Assembly (NCBI GenBank): GCA_945867505.1
Contig: CAMBIM010000003.1
Coordinates: forward strand, 1 to 46,305
Length of the DNA stretch: 46,305 nt
Source: Chitinophaga pinensis
GTDB lineage: Bacteria > Bacteroidota > Bacteroidia > Chitinophagales > LD1
Direction of reading: 5' to 3'
This document shows, piece by piece, positions 19,463-46,305 of this stretch. Position 1 is the first letter of the stretch. The number at the start of each line of letters is the position of its first letter. The translations under genes were made by a program, and so were the position numbers. The notes below the pieces were generated by a model that saw nothing but the letters and a program-made list of their open reading frames with translations, had not been told where the DNA came from and ran no database searches.

Positions 19463-20560
19463 TCAGCTTTGTTTGTGCGTAATTTTGCTGAGCCAGCTTT
19501 TTATCTTTTTTACAAACCCCGATTCTGTTTTTGCCGTTTCAATTTCACCTATTAAAAAACCGTAGGGCTTCAGCACATCAATGTGATCGCATACAATTTT
19601 TAGTATGCCGGTAAGCGGTATGGCCAAAACAATTCCGGGAATGCCCCACATAAGTTCGCCCACCACCAAGGCAATAATGGTGAACAGAGGATTAATTTTT
19701 ACCTGCGGACCAAGTATCATAGGCTCCAGCACCCAACCCTGAATTAATTGCACCGCACCGTAGGTAATTACTATGCCCCCAAGGATAGGCAGCGGTGCAC
19801 CGTTAATGGCAGTTACCAATACCGTAATTGTGGTGCCGGTGAGGTTGCCTATAAACGGAATAATTTCCAGCAGGCCGCAGAAGATGGCAAAGAAAATAGC
19901 ACTCTTAACACCCAGAATAATAAAGCCTATGCCGTACATAATCCATAAACAAAAAATCATTTTGGCCAGTCCAACCAGGTATTGCTGCGATACATGAGCG
20001 GCACTTAAAATAACCAGTTTCATTTCGGCCTGCTGCTCGGGCAACGAAAGTTTTAATATGAAATTTTTGATATGCCCGCGGTAATACAACAGCAGAAAAA
20101 CATACACCAGCATCAGAACAAAGCCTGTAAAAATATTTACCACCGAGCCCGCCATTACCTCAATTAAACCCGTTACCGATTTTTGCTGGTCCTTAATTAA
20201 CCGCGATTGCTCTGCCAATGATATGCCGAAATGATTGAAAATGTATTGCTGAACATGTCCGGCTGTTTCAAGGGTTTTTTGTTTTAGTAAAACAAAGTCG
20301 GTGGTTAAGGCTACCAGCTGCCAGCTAATTAGCGCGCCTACACCGGCTATAAACAGTATTAACAGCAACAGGCAGATAAAAGCTGCTGCCCACCGGGGCA
20401 GTTTCTTGGTTTCCATCCAATTGCTGAAGGGCAAAAACAGGGTGGCCAGTATGGTGGCTATAACCAGCGGTATCAAAAACTCCTGCGCATAATACAAACC
20501 CGCTATTACCAGAAAAAGAAAGAATAGCCTTTTTGTAACGGACACGCTATTAGTCATCAT
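19463..20560 (-). CDS. AI-2E (UPF0118) family transporter
   Basis: Multi-TM, LEIIPFIG, VLEPMILG..INPL, WGIPGIVLAIP. ATG at 20560 preferred over TTG at 20587. Confidence 0.9.
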   Translation of the reverse strand: MMTNSVSVTKRLFFLFLVIAGLYYAQEFLIPLVIATILATLFLPFSNWMETKKLPRWAAAFICLLLLILFIAGVGALISWQLVALTTDFVLLKQKTLETAGHVQQYIFNHFGISLAEQSRLIKDQQKSVTGLIEVMAGSVVNIFTGFVLMLVYVFLLLYYRGHIKNFILKLSLPEQQAEMKLVILSAAHVSQQYLVGLAKMIFCLWIMYGIGFIILGVKSAIFFAIFCGLLEIIPFIGNLTGTTITVLVTAINGAPLPILGGIVITYGAVQLIQGWVLEPMILGPQVKINPLFTIIALVVGELMWGIPGIVLAIPLTGILKIVCDHIDVLKPYGFLIGEIETAKTESGFVKKIKSWLSKITHKQS

Positions 20561-20632
20561 ATCAATGTATGTGCAGGTAAGGTTCAAACCTACCCTTTCT
20601 TTTTACTATTCTATTGCAAACTGCAGGCAAGT

Positions 20633-20727
20633 GGGGGTTGCCGCCTCAAAGCAGGCGGTCGCGCTATACACTACAATTTCCGCACTGCAAAGCCGATGCG
20701 GGAGATTTCCGTTCCTATCGCTAACCC
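20633..20727 (+). ncRNA. Flavo-1-like structured RNA / repeat element
   Basis: GGGGGTTG-CCGCCT..AGGCGG-TCGCGCTATACACTACAAT..TTTCCGTTCCTATCGCTAACCC: the ends pair and there are internal hairpins. It resembles my recollection of the Bacteroidota Flavo-1 motif; not confirmed by a search. Confidence 0.65.
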
Positions 20728-20861
20728 AATACAAACAGCCGAATGCAAGATGCCTCGTTCCCCGCAGGCTCTTCGGGCATATAAACCCATGTTTGATCCG
20801 CGTGGGGTCTACGCTTCGGGCCCCTACGGTAGTTGAATGCCAACCGCTAACTAGCACCCAC

Positions 20862-20900
20862 AAAAAAAGCGCGCAACAGTTTTCACCGATGCGCGCTTTT
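20862..20900 (-). terminator. intrinsic terminator of the T9SS gene
   Basis: AAAAGCGCGCA..TGCGCGCTTTT stem with a T7 tail on the minus strand, about 56 bp past the stop codon. Confidence 0.8.
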
Positions 20901-20956
20901 ATCTTACCTTCTAACAGCATGGTAGCCAGGTGCAAACCCTGAAGAGAAGGAGAGTA

Positions 20957-22417
20957 TTACTCTTTTACAATTCTTTTTACAGTTCCATTAACCGTTACAA
21001 AATACATACCTGCTGCTAAGTCAGCTACATTAAGCTGATACGAATTGGTATTATTCATTTTTTCATTTTTAATAATACGTCCATTCATATCTGCCAACTT
21101 AATTTCAAGGCTTCCGGTTGGTTCGGCTAATGAGATATTGATTTTGCCTGAAGTTGGATTAGGGAACAAATTAAATTGGGTAGTAGTTATTTCTTTTACA
21201 CCAGTGCTTGCGTTAGCGTAAAACTTAGCTGTTAAAGAGCCATAGATTGACGCACTACCTGAGCCACCTGTTTCTACATAATTCTGAGCTACTGCATAAT
21301 ACGTGTGTGTACCCGCAGTTACATCATAAGAACGAGTGTGCGAGAAGGAGTTGCCATCTATACTTGCACTTGGTGCTTCCACGTTTACGTTGTCTGCGTT
21401 GGTTCCCCAGTCTCTGACATCACTAGCTGCAAGAACAATGCGGTCGCCCAGGTCAGAATTGCAATTTCCATCAAACGTAACCAATACTTTTCCGTCTGTT
21501 GGAGCAGTTAAGGTTACCGAATCCAGAGCCACAGCATTAGTTAAAGCTACACCGGTTTTTGAAAGGCTTGTATAGCTTGCAGTAGGGCCGGTTGCAGGAA
21601 AAAATTCGGCTGACAGGTTACCATAGATATAGGCATTACCGCTACCGGCAGTATTTACGTAGTTCTCGCCTACTGCATAGTAAGTATATGCACCGGCTGT
21701 TACATCATACACTCTGGTATGTGAAAAGGGCAAATACCGAGAGTTAGCATTCGAAGATTCTACCGATACGTTGCCAGCGTTTGCTCCCCATGAAGCAGCA
21801 TTGCTTGCCGCTACAACAATTTTATCGCCTACATCGGAATGAACGTAGCCGTCAAAGTGAACGACTATTTTACCAGCAGCCGTTGGGTTGATGGTAAGCG
21901 AACCGAGATTAACCGCGGCACCTCTCAAATTTCCGTTGTAGTAAATATCCTGATTAACTACAGCAGCCGTACCAGTGGCAGGGAAAAACTCTACTGAAAG
22001 ACTAGCATAAATATTGGCTATGCCGGAACCAGCTTCTTCTACATAATTTTGACCTACAGCATAAAACGTATCGGCACCTGCTACTACGTCATAAGAACGG
22101 GTATGCGAAAATGACCGTCTGTTGGCTGCTGCATCCGGCACTAACATTCCGATGTTATCATTGTTGGTGCCCCAATAAGGTTCGTTACTGGCTGCCAGTA
22201 CAATTCGATCTCCATCATCGGCCGTAAACATACCATCAAAGTGTACCACCACCTTTCCAGCAGAAGGGAAATCAACAATCTGTTGTGATAAGGCAACCGG
22301 GGCTCCGCGCAAGTTACCCGAATACTGAATGCTTTGATGCCAAACCAACGACTGGGCTTGACTGATAACCGCAAAGAATGAAAAAATTAAAACGAGGGGT
22401 AAAATTTTTGTTTTCAT
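20957..22417 (-). CDS. T9SS type A sorting domain protein with three tandem ~125-aa beta-rich repeats
   Basis: Signal peptide; three copies of GK(V/I)vVxFDG..DxIVxAAS..WG.N..FSHTRxYDV.AG..YAV..NYV..GSG.A.IY; C-terminal LFPNPT..LAAGMYFV..KRIVKE. Confidence 0.9.
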   Translation of the reverse strand: MKTKILPLVLIFSFFAVISQAQSLVWHQSIQYSGNLRGAPVALSQQIVDFPSAGKVVVHFDGMFTADDGDRIVLAASNEPYWGTNNDNIGMLVPDAAANRRSFSHTRSYDVVAGADTFYAVGQNYVEEAGSGIANIYASLSVEFFPATGTAAVVNQDIYYNGNLRGAAVNLGSLTINPTAAGKIVVHFDGYVHSDVGDKIVVAASNAASWGANAGNVSVESSNANSRYLPFSHTRVYDVTAGAYTYYAVGENYVNTAGSGNAYIYGNLSAEFFPATGPTASYTSLSKTGVALTNAVALDSVTLTAPTDGKVLVTFDGNCNSDLGDRIVLAASDVRDWGTNADNVNVEAPSASIDGNSFSHTRSYDVTAGTHTYYAVAQNYVETGGSGSASIYGSLTAKFYANASTGVKEITTTQFNLFPNPTSGKINISLAEPTGSLEIKLADMNGRIIKNEKMNNTNSYQLNVADLAAGMYFVTVNGTVKRIVKE

Positions 22418-22576
22418 GTGAATAGTTTTAATGATTTAATTAATAATGCACAAACGTTGATTTTTGCTGGTGAAACACTGCTGATAAATAACAGAATAGG
22501 AGATGATAATGCTCACCCCCACAGAAGTAAAACAGTGGCTTAAGCAAAAAGAATGAAAGCAACCCTTCCTTCTCCG

Positions 22577-22606
22577 CAGGGTATTCCGGCATTACGGAAT
22601 ACCCTG
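22577..22606. repeat. GC-rich 12-bp perfect inverted repeat
   Basis: CAGGGTATTCCG-gcatta-CGGAATACCCTG, extendable outward with imperfect pairing. Confidence 0.8.
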
Positions 22607-22648
22607 ACGGAAAGAGAAATTCTTTTATCAAAGCACTATAACAGCTAT

Positions 22649-22858
22649 AACAATGCTGTTTTAATTAATAACAATATTGAAAGGAATTAAAGCAGTATAG
22701 TTATTGCCTAAAACACTATTATTTTATATAAAAACAATAGTGTTTTAATTCATTTTATAGTTGTAATAAATAATAACAACGCTGTTATTATTTATTACAA
22801 TGTTGTTTTGTTTTGTAGCAATGCTGTTATTTTATAAAACAACATTGTTATATATTTG
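22649..22858. repeat. ten phased degenerate 21-bp units with quasi-palindromic core AACAAT(A/G)(T/C)TGTT
   Basis: Units start at 22649, 22670, 22691, 22712, 22733, 22754, 22775, 22796, 22817 and 22838, with no indels. Confidence 0.85.
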
Positions 22859-22932
22859 GGCATCTTGTTTATATGCAAAAACGTGCTTTCTTTTGCAATA
22901 GTTGCTCTATTTCTTGACCCAACTAAGCGTTT

Positions 22933-23604
22933 ATGATAATAAGCCGGTGCAATCGAAACTATCACCGAATGAAAATTCAAGCTCGCGGGATATTTGCCAG
23001 CGGAGTGTTGGAATCTTATTTCAAAAACAAACCCCCGTTTACAGCACCGGTTATGCAGGAAGCCGACTTTAAAAACCTACTTAAAAATTACCACAGCACC
23101 TATTCCGATTACGCTAACGGAGGAAAGTTGAATAAAGGCGAATGGATACAGGCGCAGAAAGCGTTAATACAAGGGCTGGATGATATAGCTGATGATGTAG
23201 ACGAAATAGCCAAGGGGGATGAAAATGTTGTAGAAAAAGGAGGCTTTCAATCCATTAAAACATTCCGTTCAGATAAAGCTGAACCTGCTACACCTATAGT
23301 TGAATGGATTGGCCGCGGAGCCGATGGACAGCTACTTACGCGGTGCAACATGCTGGGGCAGGATGTGTATTATGGCTGCATATTAACGGAGGGCGAACCG
23401 CTGCCCCAGGGTATGCAAATGCAAAACGGCTGCATCAAAATTTTGCAAGGGCTTACTTTTGCTATTTACTTAGAAGAGAATAAGTCGCGCAAAAAATCTT
23501 TCATCCATTTGACGTCTGGCACGCGCTACTATGCGTATTTTTTTGCCCGCAACAGTGCCGGTGTAAGTTCATTAAGCGAGCCCAGAAGTATTATCTGCGG
23601 ATAG
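22933..23604 (+). CDS. hypothetical protein, N-terminal helical bundle plus C-terminal Fn3-like beta-sandwich
   Basis: 223 aa, no signal peptide; ends LTSGTRYYAYFFARNSAGVSSLSEP, the typical Fn3 F-G strand pattern. Confidence 0.75.
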   Translation: MIISRCNRNYHRMKIQARGIFASGVLESYFKNKPPFTAPVMQEADFKNLLKNYHSTYSDYANGGKLNKGEWIQAQKALIQGLDDIADDVDEIAKGDENVVEKGGFQSIKTFRSDKAEPATPIVEWIGRGADGQLLTRCNMLGQDVYYGCILTEGEPLPQGMQMQNGCIKILQGLTFAIYLEENKSRKKSFIHLTSGTRYYAYFFARNSAGVSSLSEPRSIICG

Positions 23605-23637
23605 GGTAGGGATTAGGCGATGTAACAAAGTGACAAT

Positions 23638-23684
23638 TACAATGCAAACAGCCGAAGAAATTCTCTTCGGCTGTTTGCATTGTA
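23638..23684. terminator. 21-bp perfect inverted repeat between convergent genes
   Basis: TACAATGCAAACAGCCGAAGA-aattc-TCTTCGGCTGTTTGCATTGTA; no long U tail. Confidence 0.7.
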
Positions 23685-23764
23685 GATCCCCTCCCGGGGA
23701 AATTGAAGATTCGATAATTGCTTTATAAATAATCAGTGCATTATCATTTTGTGGTATTAATAGT

Positions 23765-25039
23765 TCACCAACACTTACCATACAATTTATGGGCTTCCTG
23801 TTCTAATACTTCCCTATGCATGGGGTGCGCAATACTGATGAGCGCCTTAGCGCGTTGCGCAATATTTTTTCCGTAAAGGTCAACTGTTCCGTATTCCGTA
23901 ACCACATACTGCACATGTGCACGGGTAGTTACCACACCGGCACCGGTTTTAAGGGTGGGTGTAATTTTAGAAATACCTTTTGCGGTTACTGCCCCCAAAG
24001 CAATAATGGGTTTGCCGCCTTCGCTTAAAGCAGCACCACGCATAAAATCCATTTGCCCGCCTACGCCACTAAAAATTTCGGTGCCAATGCTATCGGCACA
24101 AACCTGACCGGTCAAATCAATTTCAATAGCACTGTTAATGGCGGTTACCTTTTTGTTTTTGCGGATAACCGAAGTATCGTTTACGTATGCCACATCCAGC
24201 ATGGCTATTTCGGGGTTATCATGTATAAAATCGTACAGCGCACGGGTGCCCATAGCAAAGGAAGAAACAATTTTACCCGGGTGCTTGGTTTTTAGCTTGC
24301 CGTTAATTACTCCGCTATTTACCAAAGGCAAAATGCCATCACTGAACATTTCGGTATGCACGCCCAGGTTTTTATGGTGGGTTAAAAACTGCAATACCGC
24401 GTTGGGTATTCCGCCAATGCCCATTTGCAGGCAGGCTCCGTCATCTACCAATTCAGCTACGTTTTTGCCAATGGCAATTTCCACTTCACTTGCAGCAGTT
24501 GCAGGGTATTCATGCAGGGCATCTTCGGCATATACCGCAGCGGTAATTTTTGATTGATGAATAAAGCTATCGCCCAAACTGCGCGGCATGTTCGGATTAA
24601 CTAGTGCAATAATTTTACCGGCTACTTCGCAAGCCGCAAGCGCTATATCCACAGAAATGCCTAGCGAACAGAAACCGTGCGCATCTGGCGGACTTACCTG
24701 AATTATGGCCGTATCAATAGGGTATTTTCCCGAGCGGATGAATAAAGGAATTTCGCTCAAAAACATAGGAATGTATTGCACGTTTGTTTCACTGACATGC
24801 TCGCGTATGTTCCTACCCACAAAAAATGCGTTTACCCTAAATGCCTTAGCATAAGCAGGGTTGGCATATGGTGCAGTGCCTTCGGTGTGCAGATGGGTAA
24901 TTTCAACATCGATCAGCTCCTGATGGCGCGCGGTAATTGCATTTACTAAACGTTGCGGAGCGGCTGCACCGGTATGTATATATACGCGTTCGTTACTCTT
25001 GATAATAGCTACGGCTTGTTCGGCTGTTATATAATTCAT
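23765..25039 (-). CDS. acetyl-CoA hydrolase/transferase (4-hydroxybutyrate CoA-transferase family)
   Basis: LQMGIGGIPNAV, VHTEMFSDG, SGVGGQMDF, VVTEYG. Confidence 0.93.
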   Translation of the reverse strand: MNYITAEQAVAIIKSNERVYIHTGAAAPQRLVNAITARHQELIDVEITHLHTEGTAPYANPAYAKAFRVNAFFVGRNIREHVSETNVQYIPMFLSEIPLFIRSGKYPIDTAIIQVSPPDAHGFCSLGISVDIALAACEVAGKIIALVNPNMPRSLGDSFIHQSKITAAVYAEDALHEYPATAASEVEIAIGKNVAELVDDGACLQMGIGGIPNAVLQFLTHHKNLGVHTEMFSDGILPLVNSGVINGKLKTKHPGKIVSSFAMGTRALYDFIHDNPEIAMLDVAYVNDTSVIRKNKKVTAINSAIEIDLTGQVCADSIGTEIFSGVGGQMDFMRGAALSEGGKPIIALGAVTAKGISKITPTLKTGAGVVTTRAHVQYVVTEYGTVDLYGKNIAQRAKALISIAHPMHREVLEQEAHKLYGKCW

Positions 25040-26037
25040 CTTGTTTTTTGTTTTTTATACCACGCCACGGTGCGTTTAATGCCTTCTTCAAAACCTACCT
25101 GTTGTTTATACCCTATTTCGCGTTGCGCTTTGGCAGAAGAGAAATGTAAATGATGCGTAGATGTATTGACAATATAAGTGCTGATAAGCGGCATCTGTTT
25201 GCGCAAAAAAAGAAAGTGAATTAAATCCATTACAAACCCTACCGGCATAAACAGAAAAGATGGAACAGCAGTAAGCTTGGGTTGAATGTTCAACTCTTTG
25301 CCAAACAACTCCAGTAGATTTTTTAAATGAAGATACGGAGGCTCGTAATCAGCAATAATGTAGGTATTGCCTGCCGCGTTTGGGCTTACACCGGCACATA
25401 GTAAACCATAAGCCAGGTTTTCGGCATACACATAACCAAGTTTTGATTCCCCATCGTTTACATATCCCATTAGCTTTCCATTCTCCAACCGTTGCAACAT
25501 TTCTCTGCTCGTTATTCTATCATTAGGTCCGTAAATATTAAAGCCCGGGCGAATGATGACGGTTTCAATTTTATCCTTAAACAATTCAAATAGCTCTTCG
25601 CATTTCACCTTTGATAAGATATAAGGTCGTGTAAACAATCCCGGTTTCATCAGCGGTGTTGCTTCATCGGCATTTTCAAAATTATTAAACCCATGCACCA
25701 CCAGCGAACTCATATACACCAATCTGCGCACCTTACTCTTTATGGCTTCTAGTATAAGATTCCAAGTGCCACAATAATTCACTTTTGTAATATCGTTGTT
25801 CCATGCCAGCGAAGGAAGAGCCGCTAAATGAAAAACAACTTCTACATCGTTCAGCAAACCATGTAGCGTATCCGGTTTGGTAATATCAGCATATACAATT
25901 TCGCAATTCAATCCTTCAAGATTCGATAACTCAGTACCGGGCAACACCATGGCTTTAGCGCTATGGCCTTCGCGCAAAAGCAGTTGAGTAAGGTTACTTC
26001 CTATAAAACCATTAGCACCGGTAACTAAAACGTTCAC
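25036..26037 (-). CDS. NAD-dependent epimerase/dehydratase (3-beta-HSD-like SDR)
   Basis: GTG start at 26037 gives MNVLVTGANGFIG; VFHLAA, YILSK, IRPGFNIYGP. Confidence 0.9.
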   Translation of the reverse strand: MNVLVTGANGFIGSNLTQLLLREGHSAKAMVLPGTELSNLEGLNCEIVYADITKPDTLHGLLNDVEVVFHLAALPSLAWNNDITKVNYCGTWNLILEAIKSKVRRLVYMSSLVVHGFNNFENADEATPLMKPGLFTRPYILSKVKCEELFELFKDKIETVIIRPGFNIYGPNDRITSREMLQRLENGKLMGYVNDGESKLGYVYAENLAYGLLCAGVSPNAAGNTYIIADYEPPYLHLKNLLELFGKELNIQPKLTAVPSFLFMPVGFVMDLIHFLFLRKQMPLISTYIVNTSTHHLHFSSAKAQREIGYKQQVGFEEGIKRTVAWYKKQKTR

Positions 26038-37729: not shown

Positions 37730-38125
37730 TTACTCCTGCCCAAATGAAACAGTTTCGTGCGTAGCGGCTCCGGTTTTAGGAATAAGAATAGTTGAACAAG
37801 CACCGTCTGTTTTGCGGATTATCCACGGATGAGTAATGAACGTTGGACAATCCCAAGAAGCGCCATCGGGTAAATCGTGGTAGGTAACTTCGTGTCCGTC
37901 ATAATCTATCCAGTTAATATGTAACTCGCGCTTGCTGTTGTTGGTAAAGGTAATGTTAATAGAGTCCAGCGAGTTTTGCGAGGCTACTCCGCCAAGCTGG
38001 TCGCAGGTTTTTTCGTAAAAAGAACCGGCTGTGTAAAAGGCTTTTACTTTAAGCAGGTCAACTACTTTTTTACAAGAGGTAGTAAGAATGGTTGCTGTGA
38101 TGACAAGAAATAAGAAACGTTTCAT
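37730..38125 (-). CDS. lipoprotein with von Hippel-Lindau (VHL) beta domain
   Basis: Lipobox TTSC; ITFTNNS..INWIDYDG..Y..L..G..TFITHPWIIR matches the VHL beta-domain pattern. Confidence 0.78.
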   Translation of the reverse strand: MKRFLFLVITATILTTSCKKVVDLLKVKAFYTAGSFYEKTCDQLGGVASQNSLDSINITFTNNSKRELHINWIDYDGHEVTYHDLPDGASWDCPTFITHPWIIRKTDGACSTILIPKTGAATHETVSFGQE

Positions 38126-38308: not shown

Positions 38309-41300
38309 ATGAAAAAAGCACTTACCCTGTTTTGCTTTGCCTGTTTATGTTTTTCATCGGCTGTGTTTGCGCAAAAGCAACTACAACCACAAGCTGCCGG
38401 TAAGGCGGTTTCTTATCAAGAGATAAAAGAAAAAACTACAGGCGTTAAAGTTCCTGCCAGTAAAATTTACAAACCGGACTTCGAATCGTCTGCCGAGTTT
38501 AAGAAACTGTATGCTACCGATGGGCCATACTCTTTTGTACACCCCGATGCCGAAATTTTTGACAAGCGCGACTTAACCACCAAGCATTACAAATGCAGCG
38601 ATGGAACGGTTACCGCCATCAGTTCGGCAGGGCCTGTTCATTATCAAAAGAATGGTTTATGGAATACCATCCTGAATGATGTTTCGCCTAACACAACCCA
38701 TGCAGGGTTTGGTTATGCCAATACTTACAACCGTTTTCAAACCTACTACGGCAACTCGTTGCAAAGCGGTATTCGTGTAATTACCGAAAACAATCAGCAG
38801 CTTGATTTAATGCAGAATGCGGCTGTGGTTTATTTAGATGCTGCAAAGCACCAAATAGGAAGTGCCGGTGCTATTGGCGGCAGTGTTAAACATGTAAACA
38901 ACGAAAACATTATCTACCAAAACCTGTATGCTGGGGTTACCGCCCACATTGAACACAATTCTGCCGGTTACGAGTTAAACTACGAATTGGATAATTTGAA
39001 CTGGATGAACCTGCCCGCAAACACAGCTTACGTTTCATTTAGCGAAGGAGTAAAAGTTCCTGCCGGTTATCATGCTTACCTGGAAAAAGAAAACACCATG
39101 CTGGTAATTAAAAACGATGCAGGAAACATCTTGCTTAAATACAAAGCCCCTCATTTTTACGAACGCAATAAAACTACAGAGGGCGGAAAGTTGAATGGTA
39201 GATATTCTGTTGAAGAAAAAAACGGATTGATATATGTTAACGTATTGGTAGATGCTGCCTGGTTAACCGATGCCGGAAGAAAGTTCCCTTTAGTAATTGA
39301 TCCAGTAGTGACGGTTACCCCTAATAATGCTGCCTATTGGACGTTTACTATAGACGAAGATGCCGGTTGTCAATACGACCCCAATAACGATGCGGATGAT
39401 AACTTACGCATAGGTTATGATGATGGCTTTTTTGATGATGATTATTTTCAGTGCTATGCTAAGTATAACATTGCTTCCATACCCGATAATTCTTGTTTTA
39501 TAAATTATTCTTACTGCCGTTGGTATGAGTATAATTTCACTAACGACCAATTGAATGATAATGCATTGCAATTCTTCTATCAGGCTTATGATCCTATTGC
39601 TACGGACCCTGTCCCATTAACCTGTGACCAGAACTATACCGATATAAACGCAACAGGTACTGTTTACCGAAACTACAACGCCTTTGGCAATTTTGGGACG
39701 CCAACCACTGGTTGGTACGATTTTCAACAATTAGATGTAAAAGCAAGAGTGCAAGCTGCATTAACTTACGATTTTGTAGCTTTCTCTCTGGACAATGCCA
39801 ACCAAGGCGGTCATAGCGACCCTTCCGGACCAAGCAATGATGAATGGATAGATTTTCGTGGGCACAGCAATGCTAATCGCCCGCAGTTGATTATTAATTA
39901 TGAAGTGCCTTATATAGCAGCTACAAGCGTTACTGCCTCGCCAAGTTCTACTATTTGTGCAGGTTCTTCTGTAACCCTTACCCGTTTTGATGGCACTGCC
40001 GGTACTCCAGGAAATTGGGCTTGGTATGCAGGCAGTACATTTCTTCAATATAACAATGGTAGCATAAGCGTAGCACCGGCCAGCACTACTACTTACTGTG
40101 TGCGTGGAGAAAATGGTTGCGGAAGCACTACATGCACACCTATTACTATTACGGTACAATCACTTTCAGTAGCCGCTACTTCTATTACCGGAATTACTAC
40201 TATTTGCGATGGCGGAAGCACTACGCTTAGCGTTTCGGGTGGTTTGCTTGGCACGGGTGCAAGCTGGCGTTGGTATACCGCAGGCTGCGGCTCAACATTT
40301 GCAGGCACAGGCGCATCGCTATTGGTTAGTCCAACTACTACTACCACCTACTATGTAAGAGCAGAAGGCACGTGTAACACTACTGCCTGCGTGCAAGTAA
40401 CAGTTACGGTCAATACAGTTTCTACTGCTCCGGGTTCGGTTAGCGTAACTACTTCAACTATTTGCAACGGACAATCTACACAACTTACTGCCAACGGTGG
40501 CTCGTTAGGAACAGGTGGTGTTTACCGTTGGTATAGCGGAAGTTGCGGTGGCACATTAGTTGGCACTGGGGTTTCTATTACCCCATCGCCAGCGGTTACT
40601 ACTACTTATTATGTAAGAGCCGAAGACCCCGCTCCATGCAACACACTTACAGCATGTGCATCAGCTACGGTTACGGTTAATCAATCATCGGTTGCGCCTA
40701 CAGGTATTTCGGGAGTTACTACTATATGCAATGGTGGAAGCACTACGCTGACGGTAGTTGGCGGTTCGCTTGGAACCGGTAACAGTTGGAACTGGTATAG
40801 CGGAGGTTGCGGTGGAACTTTTGTAGGCACCGGCACTACGGTTACTGTTTCGCCAAATTCTAGCACCACTTATTTTGTAAGAGCAGAAGGCTTGGCTCCT
40901 TGCCCTACTACTACAGCTTGCGTATCGCAATTAGTAACAGTTAATACCCTTTCTACCGACCCTGTTTCGGTTTCGGGAACTACTACCATTTGCGAAGGTA
41001 ACTCAACAACGCTTACAGTAGTTGGAGGCTCGTTGGGAACCGGTGGAGTGTGGACCTGGTATGCCGGTGGTTGCGGAAGCGGAGGTGCTGTGGCTACTGG
41101 AGCTACTGTAACGCTTACACCAACAGTTTCTACCAGTTACTATGTTCGTGCTGAAGGAACTTGTAATACAAGCAACTGTGCGTTTACGCCAGTTACGGTT
41201 AACGATTCATCGGTTGTTGCTTCTTCTATTACTGGTTCATCGGCAGTATGTATAGGTAGCTCAACTAACCTGACTGCCGTTGGGGGTAAGCTGGGTGTAG

Positions 41301-44300
41301 GTGCTAGTTGGAACTGGTATAGCTCAAGTTGTGGCGGAGTGCCGGAAGGTACAGGCTCTACTATTACAGTATCGCCTACTGTTGCTACTACTTATTACTT
41401 ACGTGCCGAAGGTTTATGTAACACTACAATATGTATTCCATTTACAGTAAACGTAAATCCGCTTCCTAACGGAAGTATTAGTGGTTCTGTTACCGTTTGT
41501 AGCGGAGTAGACACAGCTATCACTTTTAACTTTGCATTTGGCACTGCACCGTTTACGGTAGTTTATACTGACGGAACAAACGTATTTACAAAAAGCAACG
41601 TAAACAATGGCGATACGGCTAACGTATTGCCAACTACCACTACTACATATACTATTCAACAAATTACAGATAACAATGGCTGTATAAGAAACACCGGATT
41701 CCTTGGTGCGGCAACTATAACCGTTGCTCCGCTTCCGGTAGTTAATAATGTGTTGGTGCAAGATGTTTTGTGTAACGGAGGCAATACCGGTGTTATAACA
41801 ATTACGGCTACTAATGGCACACCTGCTTATACCTATTCAAACGATAATGGAGTTACTTACCAAAGTAATAACGTGTTTACTGGTTTAACCGCTGCTACTT
41901 ATTCCGTGTTTATTCAGGATGCGTTGGCTTGCGTTTCTAACCCGGTATATAACGTAGTGGTGGGTGAACCTACTGTTCTTACCCATATTGCTACACCACA
42001 AAACGCTAGTTGCGACAATGTATTTGACGGAACAATAACCGTAAATGCTACTGGTGGTGTTCCCTCATATACTTACTCATTAAATGGCGGACCAAACCAA
42101 CCGGGCAATGTGTTCAACGGTTTATCTGCCGGCACTTACACGGTTTTAGTAACCGATGATAATGGCTGTACTAATTCATCTACCGTAACTATTGATACAG
42201 CTTATGCGGTATATGCAAGTTTAGTTTCGCAAACACCGGTATCATGTTTTGGCGGGGTAGATGGAACAGTTACTGTTCAATTAACTAGTGGCGTTCCCCC
42301 TTACGCTTATTCAATTAATGGAGTACAGTTTGTAGCATCACCAACCTTTACGGGTTTATCTTCTGGTAACTATGTAGTTACTCTTCGCGATTCGAAAGGT
42401 TGTACAGATTTTGTAAACGTAACTATTACGCAACCAAACCAATTGCAAGCGCAAATAGATTCGCTGTTTAACATTGGCTGTAATGGAGCTAGCTCTGGTG
42501 CTATTTACATTACGGTAAGCGGAGGTAATCCGGCTTATAATTTCTTATGGAGCAACGGAGCTACTACCGAAGATTTAACTGGCTTGATTGCCGGAACATA
42601 TAATGTGGCTATAACCGATTCTAAGGGTTGTTCGGCATCTGTTGGTGCTACCATTTCGCAGCCGCTTCCTTTATTTATAAATGTAGCTTCTTACCGCGAT
42701 TTGCTTTGCTACAACGATTCATCGGGTACAATAGATATTACGGCTAATGGCGGTGTGCCACCTTATAGCTTTGTATGGAGCAATGGCGAAACAACCGAAG
42801 ATATTTATGGATTGTTGCCGGGCACTTATTCCGCAACAGTTACTGATGCCAACGGATGTCAGGAAACTATTAGCCAGGATATTATTGAGCCTACTCAATT
42901 GGCTTCTACTATTTCATCTACAGCGGTATTATGTGCAGGTGCTGCCAGCGGAAATGTGAATTTAACCGTGTCTGGAGGAACCAGTCCATATAACTATTTG
43001 TGGAATAATGGAGCAACTACTGAAGACCTTTCAAGTGTTGCTGGCGGAACGTATTCTGTTGTAGTGAATGATGCCAATGGTTGCAGTATTACTAATACAA
43101 CTTTAGTAGTCGAGCCTACACCAATTACAATTTCATTGGTTAAAACGGATGTATTATGTAATGGCAATTCAACCGGTGAAATTGATATTACCGTTAACGG
43201 TGGAACACCTGTTATCACTTATGCGTGGAGCAACTCTTCTACCAACGAAGATTTAGTGAATGTGCCAGCCGGCAATTATTCTGTAACTATTACAGATGGC
43301 AACAGTTGCACAGCAAGTGCTAGTAATACAATTACACAACCTTCAGGTCTTGTATTAAATGCAACGATTGAAAGCGTTGCTTGCAACGGTGGTGCGAACG
43401 GCTCGGTAGATATTACGGTTCAGGGAGGTGTTTTCCCTTACTCATTTAACTGGAGCAACAGTGCTACTACCGAAGATATTAACGGATTAAGTGGAGGTAC
43501 CTATTTAGTAACCGTTACCGATGCAAATGGCTGCACCATTGGTGCTTCATATTCAATTACCGAGCCTAGTGCGTTAAACGTTACGGTTACCGGCACTAAT
43601 GTTACTTGTGCAGGTTCGGCTAATGGTTCTGCCAGCGTAAGTGCCAATGGAGGAACCGCCCCTTATACTTTCTTATGGAACACTTTCCAAACTACCCAAA
43701 CTATAGTAGGAATTAGCGGAGGAACTTATTTTGCAATTGTTACCGATGCTAACGGATGCACTAATACTGATTCTGTAGTTATTACCGAAGCTCCGGCTAT
43801 AGTTCTTGCTATTAGCGTAACCAACGTTTTATGTAACGGTGCTGCTACCGGTGATGTAACTTTAACTGTAAATGGTGGAGTAAGCCCTTACGGCTATACC
43901 TGGAGCAATGGAGCTTCTACACAAAACCTAACGGGTGTAACTGCCGGAACTTATGATGTAACCGTAAAGGATTCCAACAATTGTACTGCCTCCATATCGG
44001 CTACAGTTACCCAGCCTTCTGCTATGGTAATGAACTCATCGGTGGTGAGTGTAGGTTGTGCCGGTGGTGCCGATGGTTCGGTAGATATTACTGTGCAAGG
44101 CGGTGTATTCCCTTATACTTACTTATGGAGCAACGGTGCAGTAACGGAAGATATTAATAATGTATCGGGCGGAACATTTGATGTTACTGTAACGGATGCT
44201 AACCTATGCACCATTACGGCTTCATTTACTATTACAGAACCTACTTCTATTACTTCTTCTGTTGTAGGAACGGATGTTACCTGCAACGGTGCTAGTAACG

Positions 44301-46305
44301 GTCAGGCAGATTTAACCGTAAGTGGTGGCACTACTCCTTACAATTTCTTATGGTCAACTTTCCAGGGTTCGGAAGATATTTCGGGATTAGACGGTGGACT
44401 TTACTATGTAATTATTACCGATGCTAACGGGTGTGAGAAAAAAGATTCAGTATTTATTGATGAACCGACCGCGCTTGTTCTTACAACTGTAGTTACCAAT
44501 ATCTCTTGCTTTAATGCAAACGATGGTGCTATAGATTTAACTGTTACCGGTGGTTCTCCTGCTTACACGTATGCATGGAGCAGCGGACCAACTACACAAG
44601 ACCTTTCATCTTTACCGGGTGGCTTATATGTAGTTACCGTAACCGATACGAACAACTGCACGGCTACTACATCGGCTACTATTGTAAACCCTACAGCTAT
44701 ATATGCCAACTTTATAGTGAAGAACCCATTATGTAATGGCGATACTACAGGAAGAATAGATTTGATAGGCTCTGGCGGAACACCGCCTTATGTTTACGCA
44801 TGGAGTAACGGTGCAACTACCGAAGACCTCATCAACTTAGGAGCAGGAACATACATTGTTACAATTACAGATTCACGTAATTGTTCATTTGTAGATTCGG
44901 CTGTGGTAACAGAACCTGGTCAAATATTTACTTCGGGTGTAGTGAAGAATGTAACCTGTAATGGTTTAGCCGATGGCTTTGTTGATATTACCGCTTATGC
45001 CGGCACATTGCCATACTCTTACTTATGGTCTACCGGTCAATCAACAGAAGATATATTTAATGTAACAGGTGGTAACTACTATGTTACGGTAACGGATGCC
45101 AACGGCTGTCAGGCAGTTTCGCTTTACATTATTGTAGAGCCGCAAGTTCTTGGTATTAGTTTAGTTAAAACGGATGTCACCTGTTATGGTGCAGCTACAG
45201 GAACTCTTGCTGTTTTACCAACAGGTGGTTCGCGTCCTTACTACTATTTATGGAACACGTTTGATACCGATTCATCTTTAGCTGGTGTTACTGCCGGACG
45301 CTATGTGGTGCAGTTAACCGACTCTAACGGATGCTTTATTTACGATAGTATAGATATTAACGAGCCTACCGAAATTCGTATTTCGGGTATTGTTACCGAT
45401 GCGGTTTGCTACGGTTCTTCTACCGGAAGTATTGATGTAACCGTTACAGGCGGAACTACCGCTTATACCTTTAGCTGGTCGGATGGAAGTGTTGCTGAAG
45501 ATTTGAGCAACGCAGAAGCAGGAACGTATACCCTTACAGTAACCGATGCTAATGGTTGTGTAAAAACAGCCACGTTTACAGTAGGCGAGGGCGTGCAGAT
45601 AATTTCGAACTTGAGTAGTTACGACCCTATATGCCACGGAGGAAATACGGGTTCTGCCACGGCAATAACTACGGGTGGCGTTCAGCCGTATGTATACGCA
45701 TGGAGCAACACTAAAACAAGTATCTCTATCGGCAATTTGGTGGTGGGAACGTATACCTTAACCGTAACGGATGCCGAAAGCTGCACAGCTACTGCATCGG
45801 TAGTGGTTAATGACCCTGCACCAATTACAGTTACTACTAATGCGCAAGGTGCTAAATGCTTTAACGTAGCTAACGGCACAGTAGCGGTAGGTGTAACCGG
45901 AGGATTTGCACCATATACTTATTTATTGAATGGCAACGGTCAGGCATCCGATAGCGGCTCTATTGTTTTCAATAACTTACCTGCCGATGATTACCTATTG
46001 ATTGTAACCGATGTAAACGGTTGCCAGGGAACGGCTAACTTTACTGTATCATCACCGGGTCAAATTAATGTTGACTTGCAGGTAACCGAGCAGGTAATTC
46101 TTACCGGTATGAATACACAGTTGATTGCAACAGCAAACTCTACAGCAGCTATACTTAACTATTTCTGGAGTCCTGATTCGTTACCTAATCCGGTGTTTGA
46201 TTACTCGCTTTGTGGCGACCCTACTAACTGCCCTAACCCATACGTGGCACCGCGCACTACTACTACATTTACCGTTACGGTAATGAATGCCGATTCATGT
46301 TATGC
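38309..46305 (+). CDS. giant surface protein/adhesin with Ig-like and SprB repeats (>2660 aa), 3'-truncated; absent from the ORF track
   Basis: ATG at 38309 with signal peptide MKKALTLFCFACLCFSSAVFAQ. The same frame was spot-checked at 38.5, 39.2, 39.8, 42.0 and 46.3 kb. About 6 YYVRAEG.C Ig-like repeats, then about 19 C.G..G.I..T..GG..PY.Y.WS SprB repeats. Confidence 0.93.
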   Translation, partial: MKKALTLFCFACLCFSSAVFAQKQLQPQAAGKAVSYQEIKEKTTGVKVPASKIYKPDFESSAEFKKLYATDGPYSFVHPDAEIFDKRDLTTKHYKCSDGTVTAISSAGPVHYQKNGLWNTILNDVSPNTTHAGFGYANTYNRFQTYYGNSLQSGIRVITENNQQLDLMQNAAVVYLDAAKHQIGSAGAIGGSVKHVNNENIIYQNLYAGVTAHIEHNSAGYELNYELDNLNWMNLPANTAYVSFSEGVKVPAGYHAYLEKENTMLVIKNDAGNILLKYKAPHFYERNKTTEGGKLNGRYSVEEKNGLIYVNVLVDAAWLTDAGRKFPLVIDPVVTVTPNNAAYWTFTIDEDAGCQYDPNNDADDNLRIGYDDGFFDDDYFQCYAKYNIASIPDNSCFINYSYCRWYEYNFTNDQLNDNALQFFYQAYDPIATDPVPLTCDQNYTDINATGTVYRNYNAFGNFGTPTTGWYDFQQLDVKARVQAALTYDFVAFSLDNANQGGHSDPSGPSNDEWIDFRGHSNANRPQLIINYEVPYIAATSVTASPSSTICAGSSVTLTRFDGTAGTPGNWAWYAGSTFLQYNNGSISVAPASTTTYCVRGENGCGSTTCTPITITVQSLSVAATSITGITTICDGGSTTLSVSGGLLGTGASWRWYTAGCGSTFAGTGASLLVSPTTTTTYYVRAEGTCNTTACVQVTVTVNTVSTAPGSVSVTTSTICNGQSTQLTANGGSLGTGGVYRWYSGSCGGTLVGTGVSITPSPAVTTTYYVRAEDPAPCNTLTACASATVTVNQSSVAPTGISGVTTICNGGSTTLTVVGGSLGTGNSWNWYSGGCGGTFVGTGTTVTVSPNSSTTYFVRAEGLAPCPTTTACVSQLVTVNTLSTDPVSVSGTTTICEGNSTTLTVVGGSLGTGGVWTWYAGGCGSGGAVATGATVTLTPTVSTSYYVRAEGTCNTSNCAFTPVTVNDSSVVASSITGSSAVCIGSSTNLTAVGGKLGVGASWNWYSSSCGGVPEGTGSTITVSPTVATTYYLRAEGLCNTTICIPFTVNVNPLPNGSISGSVTVCSGVDTAITFNFAFGTAPFTVVYTDGTNVFTKSNVNNGDTANVLPTTTTTYTIQQITDNNGCIRNTGFLGAATITVAPLPVVNNVLVQDVLCNGGNTGVITITATNGTPAYTYSNDNGVTYQSNNVFTGLTAATYSVFIQDALACVSNPVYNVVVGEPTVLTHIATPQNASCDNVFDGTITVNATGGVPSYTYSLNGGPNQPGNVFNGLSAGTYTVLVTDDNGCTNSSTVTIDTAYAVYASLVSQTPVSCFGGVDGTVTVQLTSGVPPYAYSINGVQFVASPTFTGLSSGNYVVTLRDSKGCTDFVNVTITQPNQLQAQIDSLFNIGCNGASSGAIYITVSGGNPAYNFLWSNGATTEDLTGLIAGTYNVAITDSKGCSASVGATISQPLPLFINVASYRDLLCYNDSSGTIDITANGGVPPYSFVWSNGETTEDIYGLLPGTYSATVTDANGCQETISQDIIEPTQLASTISSTAVLCAGAASGNVNLTVSGGTSPYNYLWNNGATTEDLSSVAGGTYSVVVNDANGCSITNTTLVVEPTPITISLVKTDVLCNGNSTGEIDITVNGGTPVITYAWSNSSTNEDLVNVPAGNYSVTITDGNSCTASASNTITQPSGLVLNATIESVACNGGANGSVDITVQGGVFPYSFNWSNSATTEDINGLSGGTYLVTVTDANGCTIGASYSITEPSALNVTVTGTNVTCAGSANGSASVSANGGTAPYTFLWNTFQTTQTIVGISGGTYFAIVTDANGCTNTDSVVITEAPAIVLAISVTNVLCNGAATGDVTLTVNGGVSPYGYTWSNGASTQNLTGVTAGTYDVTVKDSNNCTASISATVTQPSAMVMNSSVVSVGCAGGADGSVDITVQGGVFPYTYLWSNGAVTEDINNVSGGTFDVTVTDANLCTITASFTITEPTSITSSVVGTDVTCNGASNGQADLTVSGGTTPYNFLWSTFQGSEDISGLDGGLYYVIITDANGCEKKDSVFIDEPTALVLTTVVTNISCFNANDGAIDLTVTGGSPAYTYAWSSGPTTQDLSSLPGGLYVVTVTDTNNCTATTSATIVNPTAIYANFIVKNPLCNGDTTGRIDLIGSGGTPPYVYAWSNGATTEDLINLGAGTYIVTITDSRNCSFVDSAVVTEPGQIFTSGVVKNVTCNGLADGFVDITAYAGTLPYSYLWSTGQSTEDIFNVTGGNYYVTVTDANGCQAVSLYIIVEPQVLGISLVKTDVTCYGAATGTLAVLPTGGSRPYYYLWNTFDTDSSLAGVTAGRYVVQLTDSNGCFIYDSIDINEPTEIRISGIVTDAVCYGSSTGSIDVTVTGGTTAYTFSWSDGSVAEDLSNAEAGTYTLTVTDANGCVKTATFTVGEGVQIISNLSSYDPICHGGNTGSATAITTGGVQPYVYAWSNTKTSISIGNLVVGTYTLTVTDAESCTATASVVVNDPAPITVTTNAQGAKCFNVANGTVAVGVTGGFAPYTYLLNGNGQASDSGSIVFNNLPADDYLLIVTDVNGCQGTANFTVSSPGQINVDLQVTEQVILTGMNTQLIATANSTAAILNYFWSPDSLPNPVFDYSLCGDPTNCPNPYVAPRTTTTFTVTVMNADSCY

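Follow-up and report, generated by a model that had tools for sequence, protein, structure and literature searches.

The window analysed here, a stretch of 46,305 nucleotides of Chitinophaga pinensis DNA, contains ten 21-bp units in tandem. This array lies in an intergenic region of 515 bp, upstream of a gene encoding a 223-residue protein, P0001. The window is contig C3 of the source genome G000 (2.94 Mb in 309 contigs, 74% complete); other G numbers denote other genomes compared, L numbers homologue loci and C numbers contigs. The array represents a class of non-coding DNA with a strict 21/42-bp period, present by the dozen in some lake Chitinophagales genomes and previously undescribed: a search of the full-text literature, with supplements and subscription journals outside its scope, returned no description of 21/42-bp periodic intergenic arrays or of P0001-type families. 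At the locus, array and gene form a single-gene module between a divergent gene with a type IX secretion system (T9SS) tail and a convergent acetyl-CoA hydrolase gene, with the following features.

20957–22417, minus strand: gene for a 486-residue protein with a T9SS C-terminal sorting domain, divergent, left of the array.
22649–22858, no strand assigned: the array, ten 21-bp units (5 × 42 bp), studied by repeat, pattern-shuffle, frame and single-strand fold analyses.
22859–22932, plus strand: 74-bp spacer from the last good unit to the ATG, studied by alignment with orthologues and a terminator scan.
22933–23604, plus strand: gene for the 223-residue P0001, studied by an AlphaFold2 (AF2) model and by fold and family searches.
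23636–23684, no strand assigned: GC-rich hairpin between the convergent gene ends, seen in the sequence; otherwise only sub-threshold hairpin 'miRNA' matches.

Read in rows of 21 bases from 22649, the ten units keep strict register without a single shift, as an earlier note made from the letters of this DNA had claimed. A 1488-nt contig from an independent riverine metagenome run covers 21927–23414 and spans the array with one difference, showing that the array is not an assembly artefact. Each unit consists of a 12-bp core, wACA-N4-TGTw, and a 9-bp AT-rich linker, with dyad axes at the core centres. The core AACAAYRYTGTT is present with at most one mismatch in six units (at 22649, 22733, 22775, 22796, 22817 and 22838), while three units are weaker (22670, 22691 and 22712) and one is degenerate (22754). 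The two linkers that flank a core are mutual reverse complements, so dyads recur every 21 bp and the lattice they form has a translation period of 42 bp. Its GC content is ~0.20.

The core pattern finds 12 matches in the window against a mean of 3.45 in 100 shuffles, none of which reaches 12, and 11 of the 12 are strand-readings of the six good array sites; start-to-start spacings of the repeats within the array (63, 21, 42, 21 and 21) are all multiples of 21. Across the 2.94-Mb genome, AACA-N4-TGTT occurs in 111 copies and is clustered at this array only. Tandem Repeats Finder, at default-like settings, detects only 22771–22857. The array also contains inverted repeats with arms of 17–19 bp, and its single-strand folding is equal for both strands (z of -7.2 and -9.4).

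A scan of G000 for self-identity of at least 55% in 168-bp windows, sorted by lag, shows that this period is not confined to one locus. Lag 42 gave 40 windows, lag 21 gave 23 and lag 63 gave 21, against 0, 2, 0 and 2 at lags 40, 41, 43 and 44, and the preference for lag 42 is also seen in five other genomes. All 40 G000 arrays are intergenic, in divergent, tandem and convergent settings, with lengths of 219–417 bp, 5–10 units and 19–55% GC. Each has its own private unit sequence, the 42-bp consensus units differing between arrays. In an all-against-all blastn comparison of 200-bp flanks, matches were restricted to locus duplicates (C20/C2 and C259/C294) and a few short or local stretches, and no shared array leader or tail was found among the 40. 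Array centres are homogenised and edges are degenerate. Many arrays stand beside housekeeping genes (thioredoxin-reductase-like, PolA, DEAD helicase, peptidases, groEL), and some lie between two inward-facing terminators (C50) or past a terminator (C35 and C218, for example after groEL), where read-through transcription is therefore unlikely.

In the 42-bp consensus units from 37 G000 arrays, the A/T pattern shows excess power at 21 bp. Excess power at 7.0 and 5.25 bp (z of 5.6 and 5.9), which correspond to harmonics three and four of 21 bp, was a separate observation. A second periodic series in G000, at 9, 18, 27, 36, 45 and 54 bp with 7–14 windows each, probably consists of coding three-residue repeats. 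Several contigs have their start inside an array, or their end at a family gene or no more than ~170 bp from one (C201, C20, C192 and C227 of G000; G007:C91, in which the gap shows 21-bp units; and G013:C180). Because several family genes lie that close to contig ends, the arrays matter for genome assembly; they probably break short-read assemblies, so that array counts are lower bounds.

Two known kinds of array were rejected. A CRISPR array is excluded since both 21-bp halves of the 42-bp unit recur, in a test of the repeat/spacer layout only (Cas genes were not searched for); CRISPR finders may nevertheless flag such arrays. The other candidate is a MITE (miniature inverted-repeat transposable element) of the BrickBuilt type. 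As given in the excerpted text of PMC4596501, BrickBuilt of Porphyromonas gingivalis has a 23-nt unit of one sequence at 19 loci, with a leader and tail bearing inverted-repeat ends. Like the present arrays, this minisatellite-MITE, the only intergenic minisatellite already described from Bacteroidota that our searches turned up, forms intergenic, non-coding tandem arrays in Bacteroidota, at many loci and close to gene ends; here, in contrast to what those excerpts (PMC4596501) describe, the unit is 21/42 bp, each array has a private sequence and no ends are shared. The MITE was rejected because the unit consensus differs per array and flanks match only in locus duplicates.

A 21-bp period could also be the trace of a decayed coiled-coil gene, in which each heptad of seven codons would occupy 21 nt. 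The period is a multiple of three and of seven codons, and GC-rich arrays such as that of L013 have an open frame resembling a 14-residue repeat, although a stop-free frame, found in 10 of 20 family-associated arrays in other genomes, is the chance expectation for repeats. At 22649–22858, by contrast, the six frames contain 3, 6, 8, 5, 9 and 4 stops, and every frame is stopped in 29 of the 40 G000 arrays and in 10 of the 20 family arrays. Variation between units shows no third-position excess either: codon-phase bias at P<0.01 was detected in 1/40 G000 arrays and 0/20 family-associated arrays, with P of 0.65–0.77 for the array at 22649–22858, and arrays of ~20% GC keep the period. A protein-coding heptad or 14-residue repeat was rejected on these grounds, and a decayed coiled-coil gene, which the earlier note had set against its own reading, is not borne out in the relatives and is scarcely credible. 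The arrays are non-coding, and the note's description of closed frames and of non-coding DNA phased at two helical turns stands.

For comparison with other genomes, 84–400 kb were sampled from each of ten, with the following counts of lag-42 arrays.

G000: P0001 family present, 40 arrays in 2.94 Mb.
G013: family present, 11 arrays in 400 kb.
G017: family present, 6 arrays in 200 kb.
G080 (another genus): family present, 3 arrays in 192 kb.
G001: family present, 4 arrays in 200 kb.
G051: family present, 9 arrays in 200 kb.
G011: family absent, 0 arrays in 400 kb.
G024: family absent, 0 arrays in 84 kb.
G078: family absent, 0 arrays in 200 kb.
G019: family absent, 0 arrays in 200 kb.
G058: family absent, 0 arrays in 200 kb.

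Arrays occur in 6/6 sampled genomes with the gene family against 0/5 without it; as the genomes are interrelated, the contrast describes a pattern without being a statistical test. Downstream of groEL, the 42-bp arrays present in G000 and G013 are unrelated, and none occurs in G017 or G011. In G046, the region downstream of groEL (L160, 3254–3530) holds tandem units of an A-run, a GC hairpin (CCGCAAGGTTGCGG) and a T-run, with a 40–41-bp period and indels, which looks like a string of bidirectional terminators.

Arrays also take a fixed position relative to genes of the P0001 family. We had 34 distinct family genes, 32 of them with upstream sequence sufficient for a judgement, and counted a lag-42 array within 700 bp as upstream. 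An array is present upstream at 22 of these 32 loci (one of the 22 at 500–700 bp) and downstream at only one, and in 19 of 21 loci it spans about -84 to -380 from the ATG. Homologues without any upstream periodic array were the observation that the earlier note had named beforehand as speaking against it; the survey gave the opposite result. The ten array-less loci include a C-terminal fragment, N-terminally truncated copies and distant members, and three of them (L025, L026 and L009) show visibly degenerate or 21-bp-only arrays. There is no synteny among the homologue loci: the genes flanking the module in the window are not found beside homologues, and the acetyl-CoA hydrolase neighbourhood of G013 has no module. 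Of seven G000 members found with the family hidden Markov model, three have an array at most 200 bp upstream (C3, C193 and C86) and two have one 440–770 bp upstream (C78 and C20); the member on C272 has an array at its 3' end, and that on C201 runs off its contig.

Beyond mere proximity, the helical phase of the cores relative to the start codon is maintained in the closest orthologues. Counted from the ATG, all ACA-N4-TGT cores of L001 (5/5), L021 (7/7) and L022 (11/11) have phase 11 mod 21, with the last core at -94 in all three, at protein identities of 50–58%. In a fourth orthologue, L024, 6/6 cores are at phase 12, one base shifted, and two more distant orthologues have cores at -73 and -52, in the same phase as the closest three. 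Unit sequences, N4 centres and linkers, on the other hand, differ among the closest orthologues. Constant half-sites and spacing with variable centres and linkers suggest selection on the half-sites and their spacing. Together with a distance to the gene that is free of indels, they speak for a DNA site recognised by a dimer, on one face relative to the promoter region. Both the linkage of array and gene and the phase to the ATG are thus conserved. The pairing proposed in the earlier note stands in this respect; it does not stand as something particular to this gene, the array being one of 40.

The promoter of the P0001 gene presumably lies in the spacer at 22859–22932, which contains degenerate unit remnants and, near -42, a TTTTGCA motif common to the orthologues. 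The octamer TATATTTG does lie at 22851–22858, 74 bp before the ATG at 22933, where the earlier note had placed it; its reading as a -7 element was not upheld, as the orthologues have TATGCTTTTAAG and AATGCTTTTTAG there and arrays show no enrichment of TAnnTTTG (16 occurrences, with 15.4 ± 4.0 in shuffles).

These data bear directly on the possibility that the arrays are period-locked minisatellites without function. A lineage-specific process of 42-bp slippage or recombination, or mobile duplication, would seed intergenic arrays, which would then evolve by unequal crossing-over, and the association with genes would arise from modules duplicating together with their arrays. Such a process would fit the occurrence of arrays in every intergenic topology, their homogenised centres and degenerate edges, their being either absent or abundant per genome (6/6 against 0/5), the unrelated or missing arrays downstream of groEL, and an internal identity that, by our tally, is similar in orphan (~0.73) and gene-linked arrays (0.71). 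It fits poorly with the strong upstream bias at family genes (22/32 against 1/32 downstream), with ACA/TGT half-sites and an exact ATG distance kept at 50–58% protein identity, with the narrow range of array lengths (about 220–450 bp), with old, diverged arrays such as 22649–22858 that lack any register shift over ten units, and with the absence of shared ends that would mark a mobile element. We consider this explanation rather unlikely.

Alternatively, the arrays could act as RNA. In a repeat RNA module, transcribed 42-nt units, whether processed or left intact, would bind and control the adjacent protein, as in a type III toxin–antitoxin (TA) system or with an RNA sponge; every paralogue would then be matched by a cognate repeat, with orphan arrays standing for antitoxins that lack a toxin. 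According to the available portion of PMC3401426, type III loci have repeats of 31–62 nt in 1.9–5.6 copies and toxins of 45–288 residues. A tandem array directly upstream of a small gene fits these published criteria (PMC3401426, in the same portion), the 42-nt unit is within the range of ToxIN, CptIN and TenpIN, and the P0001 family is TA-like in being patchy (14/67 genomes), multi-copy and non-syntenic, with private repeats. A T-run also often follows the last array unit at family loci.

Several observations speak against an RNA module. A scan of 22300–23800 found no plus-strand terminator-like site in 22859–22932, between array and gene, where only a weak AU-rich stem is visible by eye. The type III repeat length varies within one family (31–62 nt in the portion of PMC3401426 cited), in contrast to a period that is invariant here across unrelated genes, and the 5–10 copies exceed the 1.9–5.6 published there. 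Many arrays flank housekeeping genes or sit between terminators, and many lack a partner gene. P0001 matches no Pfam family at E<=0.01, toxin families included, and its predicted fold is a helical hairpin followed by an Fn3 domain, the listed fold matches being Fn3 only; no similarity to known toxins such as ToxN, CptN or TenpN appears in sequence or among the listed folds, in searches that barely probed the helical part of P0001. Finally, consensus-paired positions, read on the sense strand of the gene, comprise 1090 Watson–Crick pairs, 117 G/T, 117 A/C and 409 others. The equality of G/T and A/C indicates the symmetry of duplex DNA and not an RNA stem tolerating G·U, so that the wobble signature of an RNA is missing. 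A known RNA family was rejected, as an E-value scan of 20500–25500 with the Rfam 15 covariance models gave no match inside 22649–22858. On balance, an RNA module is unlikely.

We instead favour, tentatively and at less than even likelihood, that the array is a helically phased DNA platform that is cooperatively loaded with protein and controls the adjacent one-gene module. The period, equal to two or four turns of B-DNA, is the only property that all arrays share. At 2 × 10.5 bp across unrelated sequences, it is what a constraint to one helical face predicts, and with the tested neighbouring periods nearly empty and RNA-repeat lengths variable elsewhere, a helical constraint on duplex DNA is the simplest explanation. 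The period lock, the mismatch symmetry, the phase to the gene and the presence of arrays in untranscribed-looking places together make a phased DNA platform the preferred reading. The array would then be a cis-acting DNA element, and neither an RNA nor a gene remnant. Equivalent sites would recur exactly two helical turns (21 bp) apart, with a translation period of 42 bp because neighbours are dyad-related, and all sites would face one side of the helix, allowing an oligomeric or cooperatively binding protein to be loaded over ~200–350 bp. Ending ~75 bp before the start codon in fixed helical phase, the lattice could serve as an upstream control platform, silencing or activating by wrapping or looping. 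The candidate binder would be an array-specific dimer for ACA-N4-TGT here, or a factor reading periodic DNA shape. We infer that a protein binds the array and that this binding controls transcription of the adjacent gene.

The adjacent protein itself does not resemble a DNA-binding protein. The AF2 model of P0001 (mean pLDDT, the predicted local distance difference test, 89.9) has an N-terminal strand, a helical hairpin (H15–29 and H43–93) and a C-terminal Fn3 domain, in agreement with the helical and Fn3 parts read from the sequence in the earlier note. The long helix has 50 residues and is acidic. The N-terminus carries a conserved motif, MxxSxC[SN]xN[YF]HRMKI, and four cysteines (C6, C138, C149 and C222) are invariant. 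No match was found in Pfam (E<=0.01), PHROG, PADLOC or NCBIfam; structure searches (Foldseek, VIA) gave Fn3 domains only among the matches listed, with the N-terminal helices barely probed. A homodimer prediction scored 0.40 against a mark of 0.42, a value that speaks neither for nor against a dimer. The family comprises ~220 clusters at 50% identity, of which the named ones are all 'hypothetical', and Bacteroidota are the source of the ESM Atlas clusters nearest to it. Within the taxonomic family, the gene is present in 14/67 genomes, mostly in several copies, and its nearest named relatives are in lake and river metagenome-assembled genomes labelled Chitinophagales or Chitinophaga. No relatives were found in Joint Genome Institute metagenome contigs (by pattern scan) or in IMG/VR, and tblastn gave zero matches in 72,556 plasmids and 50,697 phages.

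Iterons, ParR–parC centromeres and omega-type arrays consist of four to ten or more short units at a spacing of about two helical turns, beside a gene and private to each module, and ARG boxes, the operators of ArgR, are palindromes, two to a few per operator, that stand upstream of arginine genes with 21 bp between centres. The view in the earlier note that no described system has such a layout is thus too strong, since phased arrays of 21–22 bp beside a cognate gene are known from iterons, parC and ARG boxes, although the present locus could be assigned to none of these classes. The array could accordingly be read as the iterons or centromere of an integrated replicon, with P0001 as initiator or centromere-binding protein: the array, with some ten units, direct or dyad, two turns apart and next to a gene, has the classic layout of such sites, and the family member on C86 adjoins a tyrosine recombinase. 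P0001, however, matches no Pfam family, and so no Rep, ParA/ParM/TubZ or ribbon–helix–helix (RHH) family; the neighbouring genes scanned include no partition or replication family; no DnaA box (TTATCCACA) occurs at <=1 mismatch in 22400–22950; the context is that of chromosomal housekeeping genes; the protein has no plasmid, phage or IMG/VR relatives; and 40 arrays per genome are too many for replicon origins. A partition operon would also pair an NTPase with a centromere-binding protein, whereas the module has one gene. This origin of the array is very improbable.

In our reading the array would nonetheless act as iterons, parC and omega-type arrays do, a private array beside a gene being loaded cooperatively on one DNA face. 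The differences are that no Rep, Par or RHH protein, NTPase partner, DnaA box or plasmid or phage context is seen here, and that the arrays number dozens per chromosome, many of them partnerless, at a period of exactly 21/42 bp. For a possible reader of the period, the closest analogue may be protein p6 of phage phi29, which reads periodic DNA shape and not sequence, at a period of 24 bp and at the end of the phage genome. Neither the arginine-gene context of ARG boxes nor the phage-end context of p6 applies here.

A number of points weigh against the phased platform. P0001, which the earlier note had paired with the array, has no helix–turn–helix, RHH or other DNA-binding fold in the model and fold searches, its long helix being acidic. 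There is no universal motif, the best 5-mer (AACTT) occurring in 13/37 arrays, so that one sequence-specific factor cannot serve all arrays, and palindromy is significant in a subset only. Paralogues with the same N-terminal motif carry unrelated arrays, and the units of distant paralogues are wholly different (GAGAC-N-GTCTC, TTGCAAGCTTGCAA and AGTACT). The 37 G000 consensus units show no 10.5-bp A/T phasing (harmonic 4; z of 1.6 for W and 1.0 for AA/TT), and intrinsic A-tract curvature is not supported, given the absence of excess power at that period. Roughly one array in four sits in a convergent intergenic region, with no promoter to control. Judged by GroEL and acetyl-CoA hydrolase identity, the genomes with arrays are also the more closely related ones, and the co-occurrence of arrays and gene family may in part be owed to shared ancestry. 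Lastly, transcription data do not reach the array: metatranscriptome contigs (runs X19 and X20) match only over the T9SS-tail gene, from a relative ~93–96% identical by the listed differences, and one of them ends at 22418, so that neither the array nor the P0001 gene is covered and the data are uninformative either way.

Genes other than those of the P0001 family are also found beside arrays. Around 73 arrays in six genomes, 45 open reading frames (ORFs) of at least 120 residues have a 5' end no more than 300 bp from an array, and 18 of the 45 belong to four recurrent families.

P0001 family: 4 members among the array-adjacent ORFs.
310–400-residue family: 9 members, in five genomes.
~320-residue family: 3 members.
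~140-residue family: 2 members.

Among the scanned members of these families, no Pfam domain was found except a CarboxypepD_reg domain in one. The model of the nine-member family has long helical hairpins and a C-terminal beta-sandwich (pLDDT 76.7), and its fold matches are a transthyretin-like beta-sandwich and generic coiled coils only, with the helical parts barely probed. A profile comparison of the P0001 and nine-member families gave a probability of 1.7%, i.e. no detectable homology.

A wider proposal, possible but doubtful in our judgement, is that some Chitinophagales carry genome-wide 'period-coded' DNA elements, defined by the exact 21/42-bp period and not by sequence. These would be read, and perhaps generated, by a period-sensing nucleoprotein machinery co-inherited with families of helical-hairpin and beta-sandwich proteins, and would constitute a new bacterial chromatin or regulatory element with the 223-residue family as a component. 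If the arrays are functional, they would be cis-elements recognised by helical period rather than by sequence; to our knowledge, recognition by period is known for a few architectural proteins and not as a genome-wide bacterial class. Functional arrays would also open a way to at least three protein families of Bacteroidota, so far uncharacterised, that are linked to them. Were the arrays neutral, a mutational mechanism that measures out 42 bp would still be a novelty. The class lends itself to testing, since its period can be altered at will.

Around the module lie ordinary chromosomal genes, for a two-component system, an AI-2E transporter, aconitase and acetate kinase, and the DNA is also present in lake-water and riverine metagenome runs. 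Right of the P0001 ORF and convergent with it, the acetyl-CoA hydrolase gene lies beyond the hairpin at 23636–23684, which, judged from its sequence, is probably a bidirectional terminator closing the one-gene module. On the other side, a perfect 12-bp inverted repeat (CAGGGTATTCCG / CGGAATACCCTG, with a 6-nt gap) lies at 22577–22606, 43 bp upstream of the array and between it and the T9SS-tail gene. An independent lake metagenome contig (run X8) matches the window from 22611 on, following 255 unrelated bases upstream; going by this sequence, the left flank of the module may differ in that lake population.

Further from the array, three observations stand apart from the module. A Flavo-1 RNA (RF01705; 44.6 bits against a gathering score of 42, E of 1.9e-07) was found at 20653–20731 on the minus strand, in the gap between the AI-2E transporter and T9SS-tail genes, 2 kb from the array. 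A 131-residue ORF at 37730–38125 on the minus strand matches the VHL beta domain (PF01847; E of 2.9e-10, 40.5 bits where the cut-off is 21), a family one would not expect in a bacterium. Lastly, an unannotated, open-ended ORF of at least 2665 residues (38309–46303, plus strand) runs off the end of the contig.

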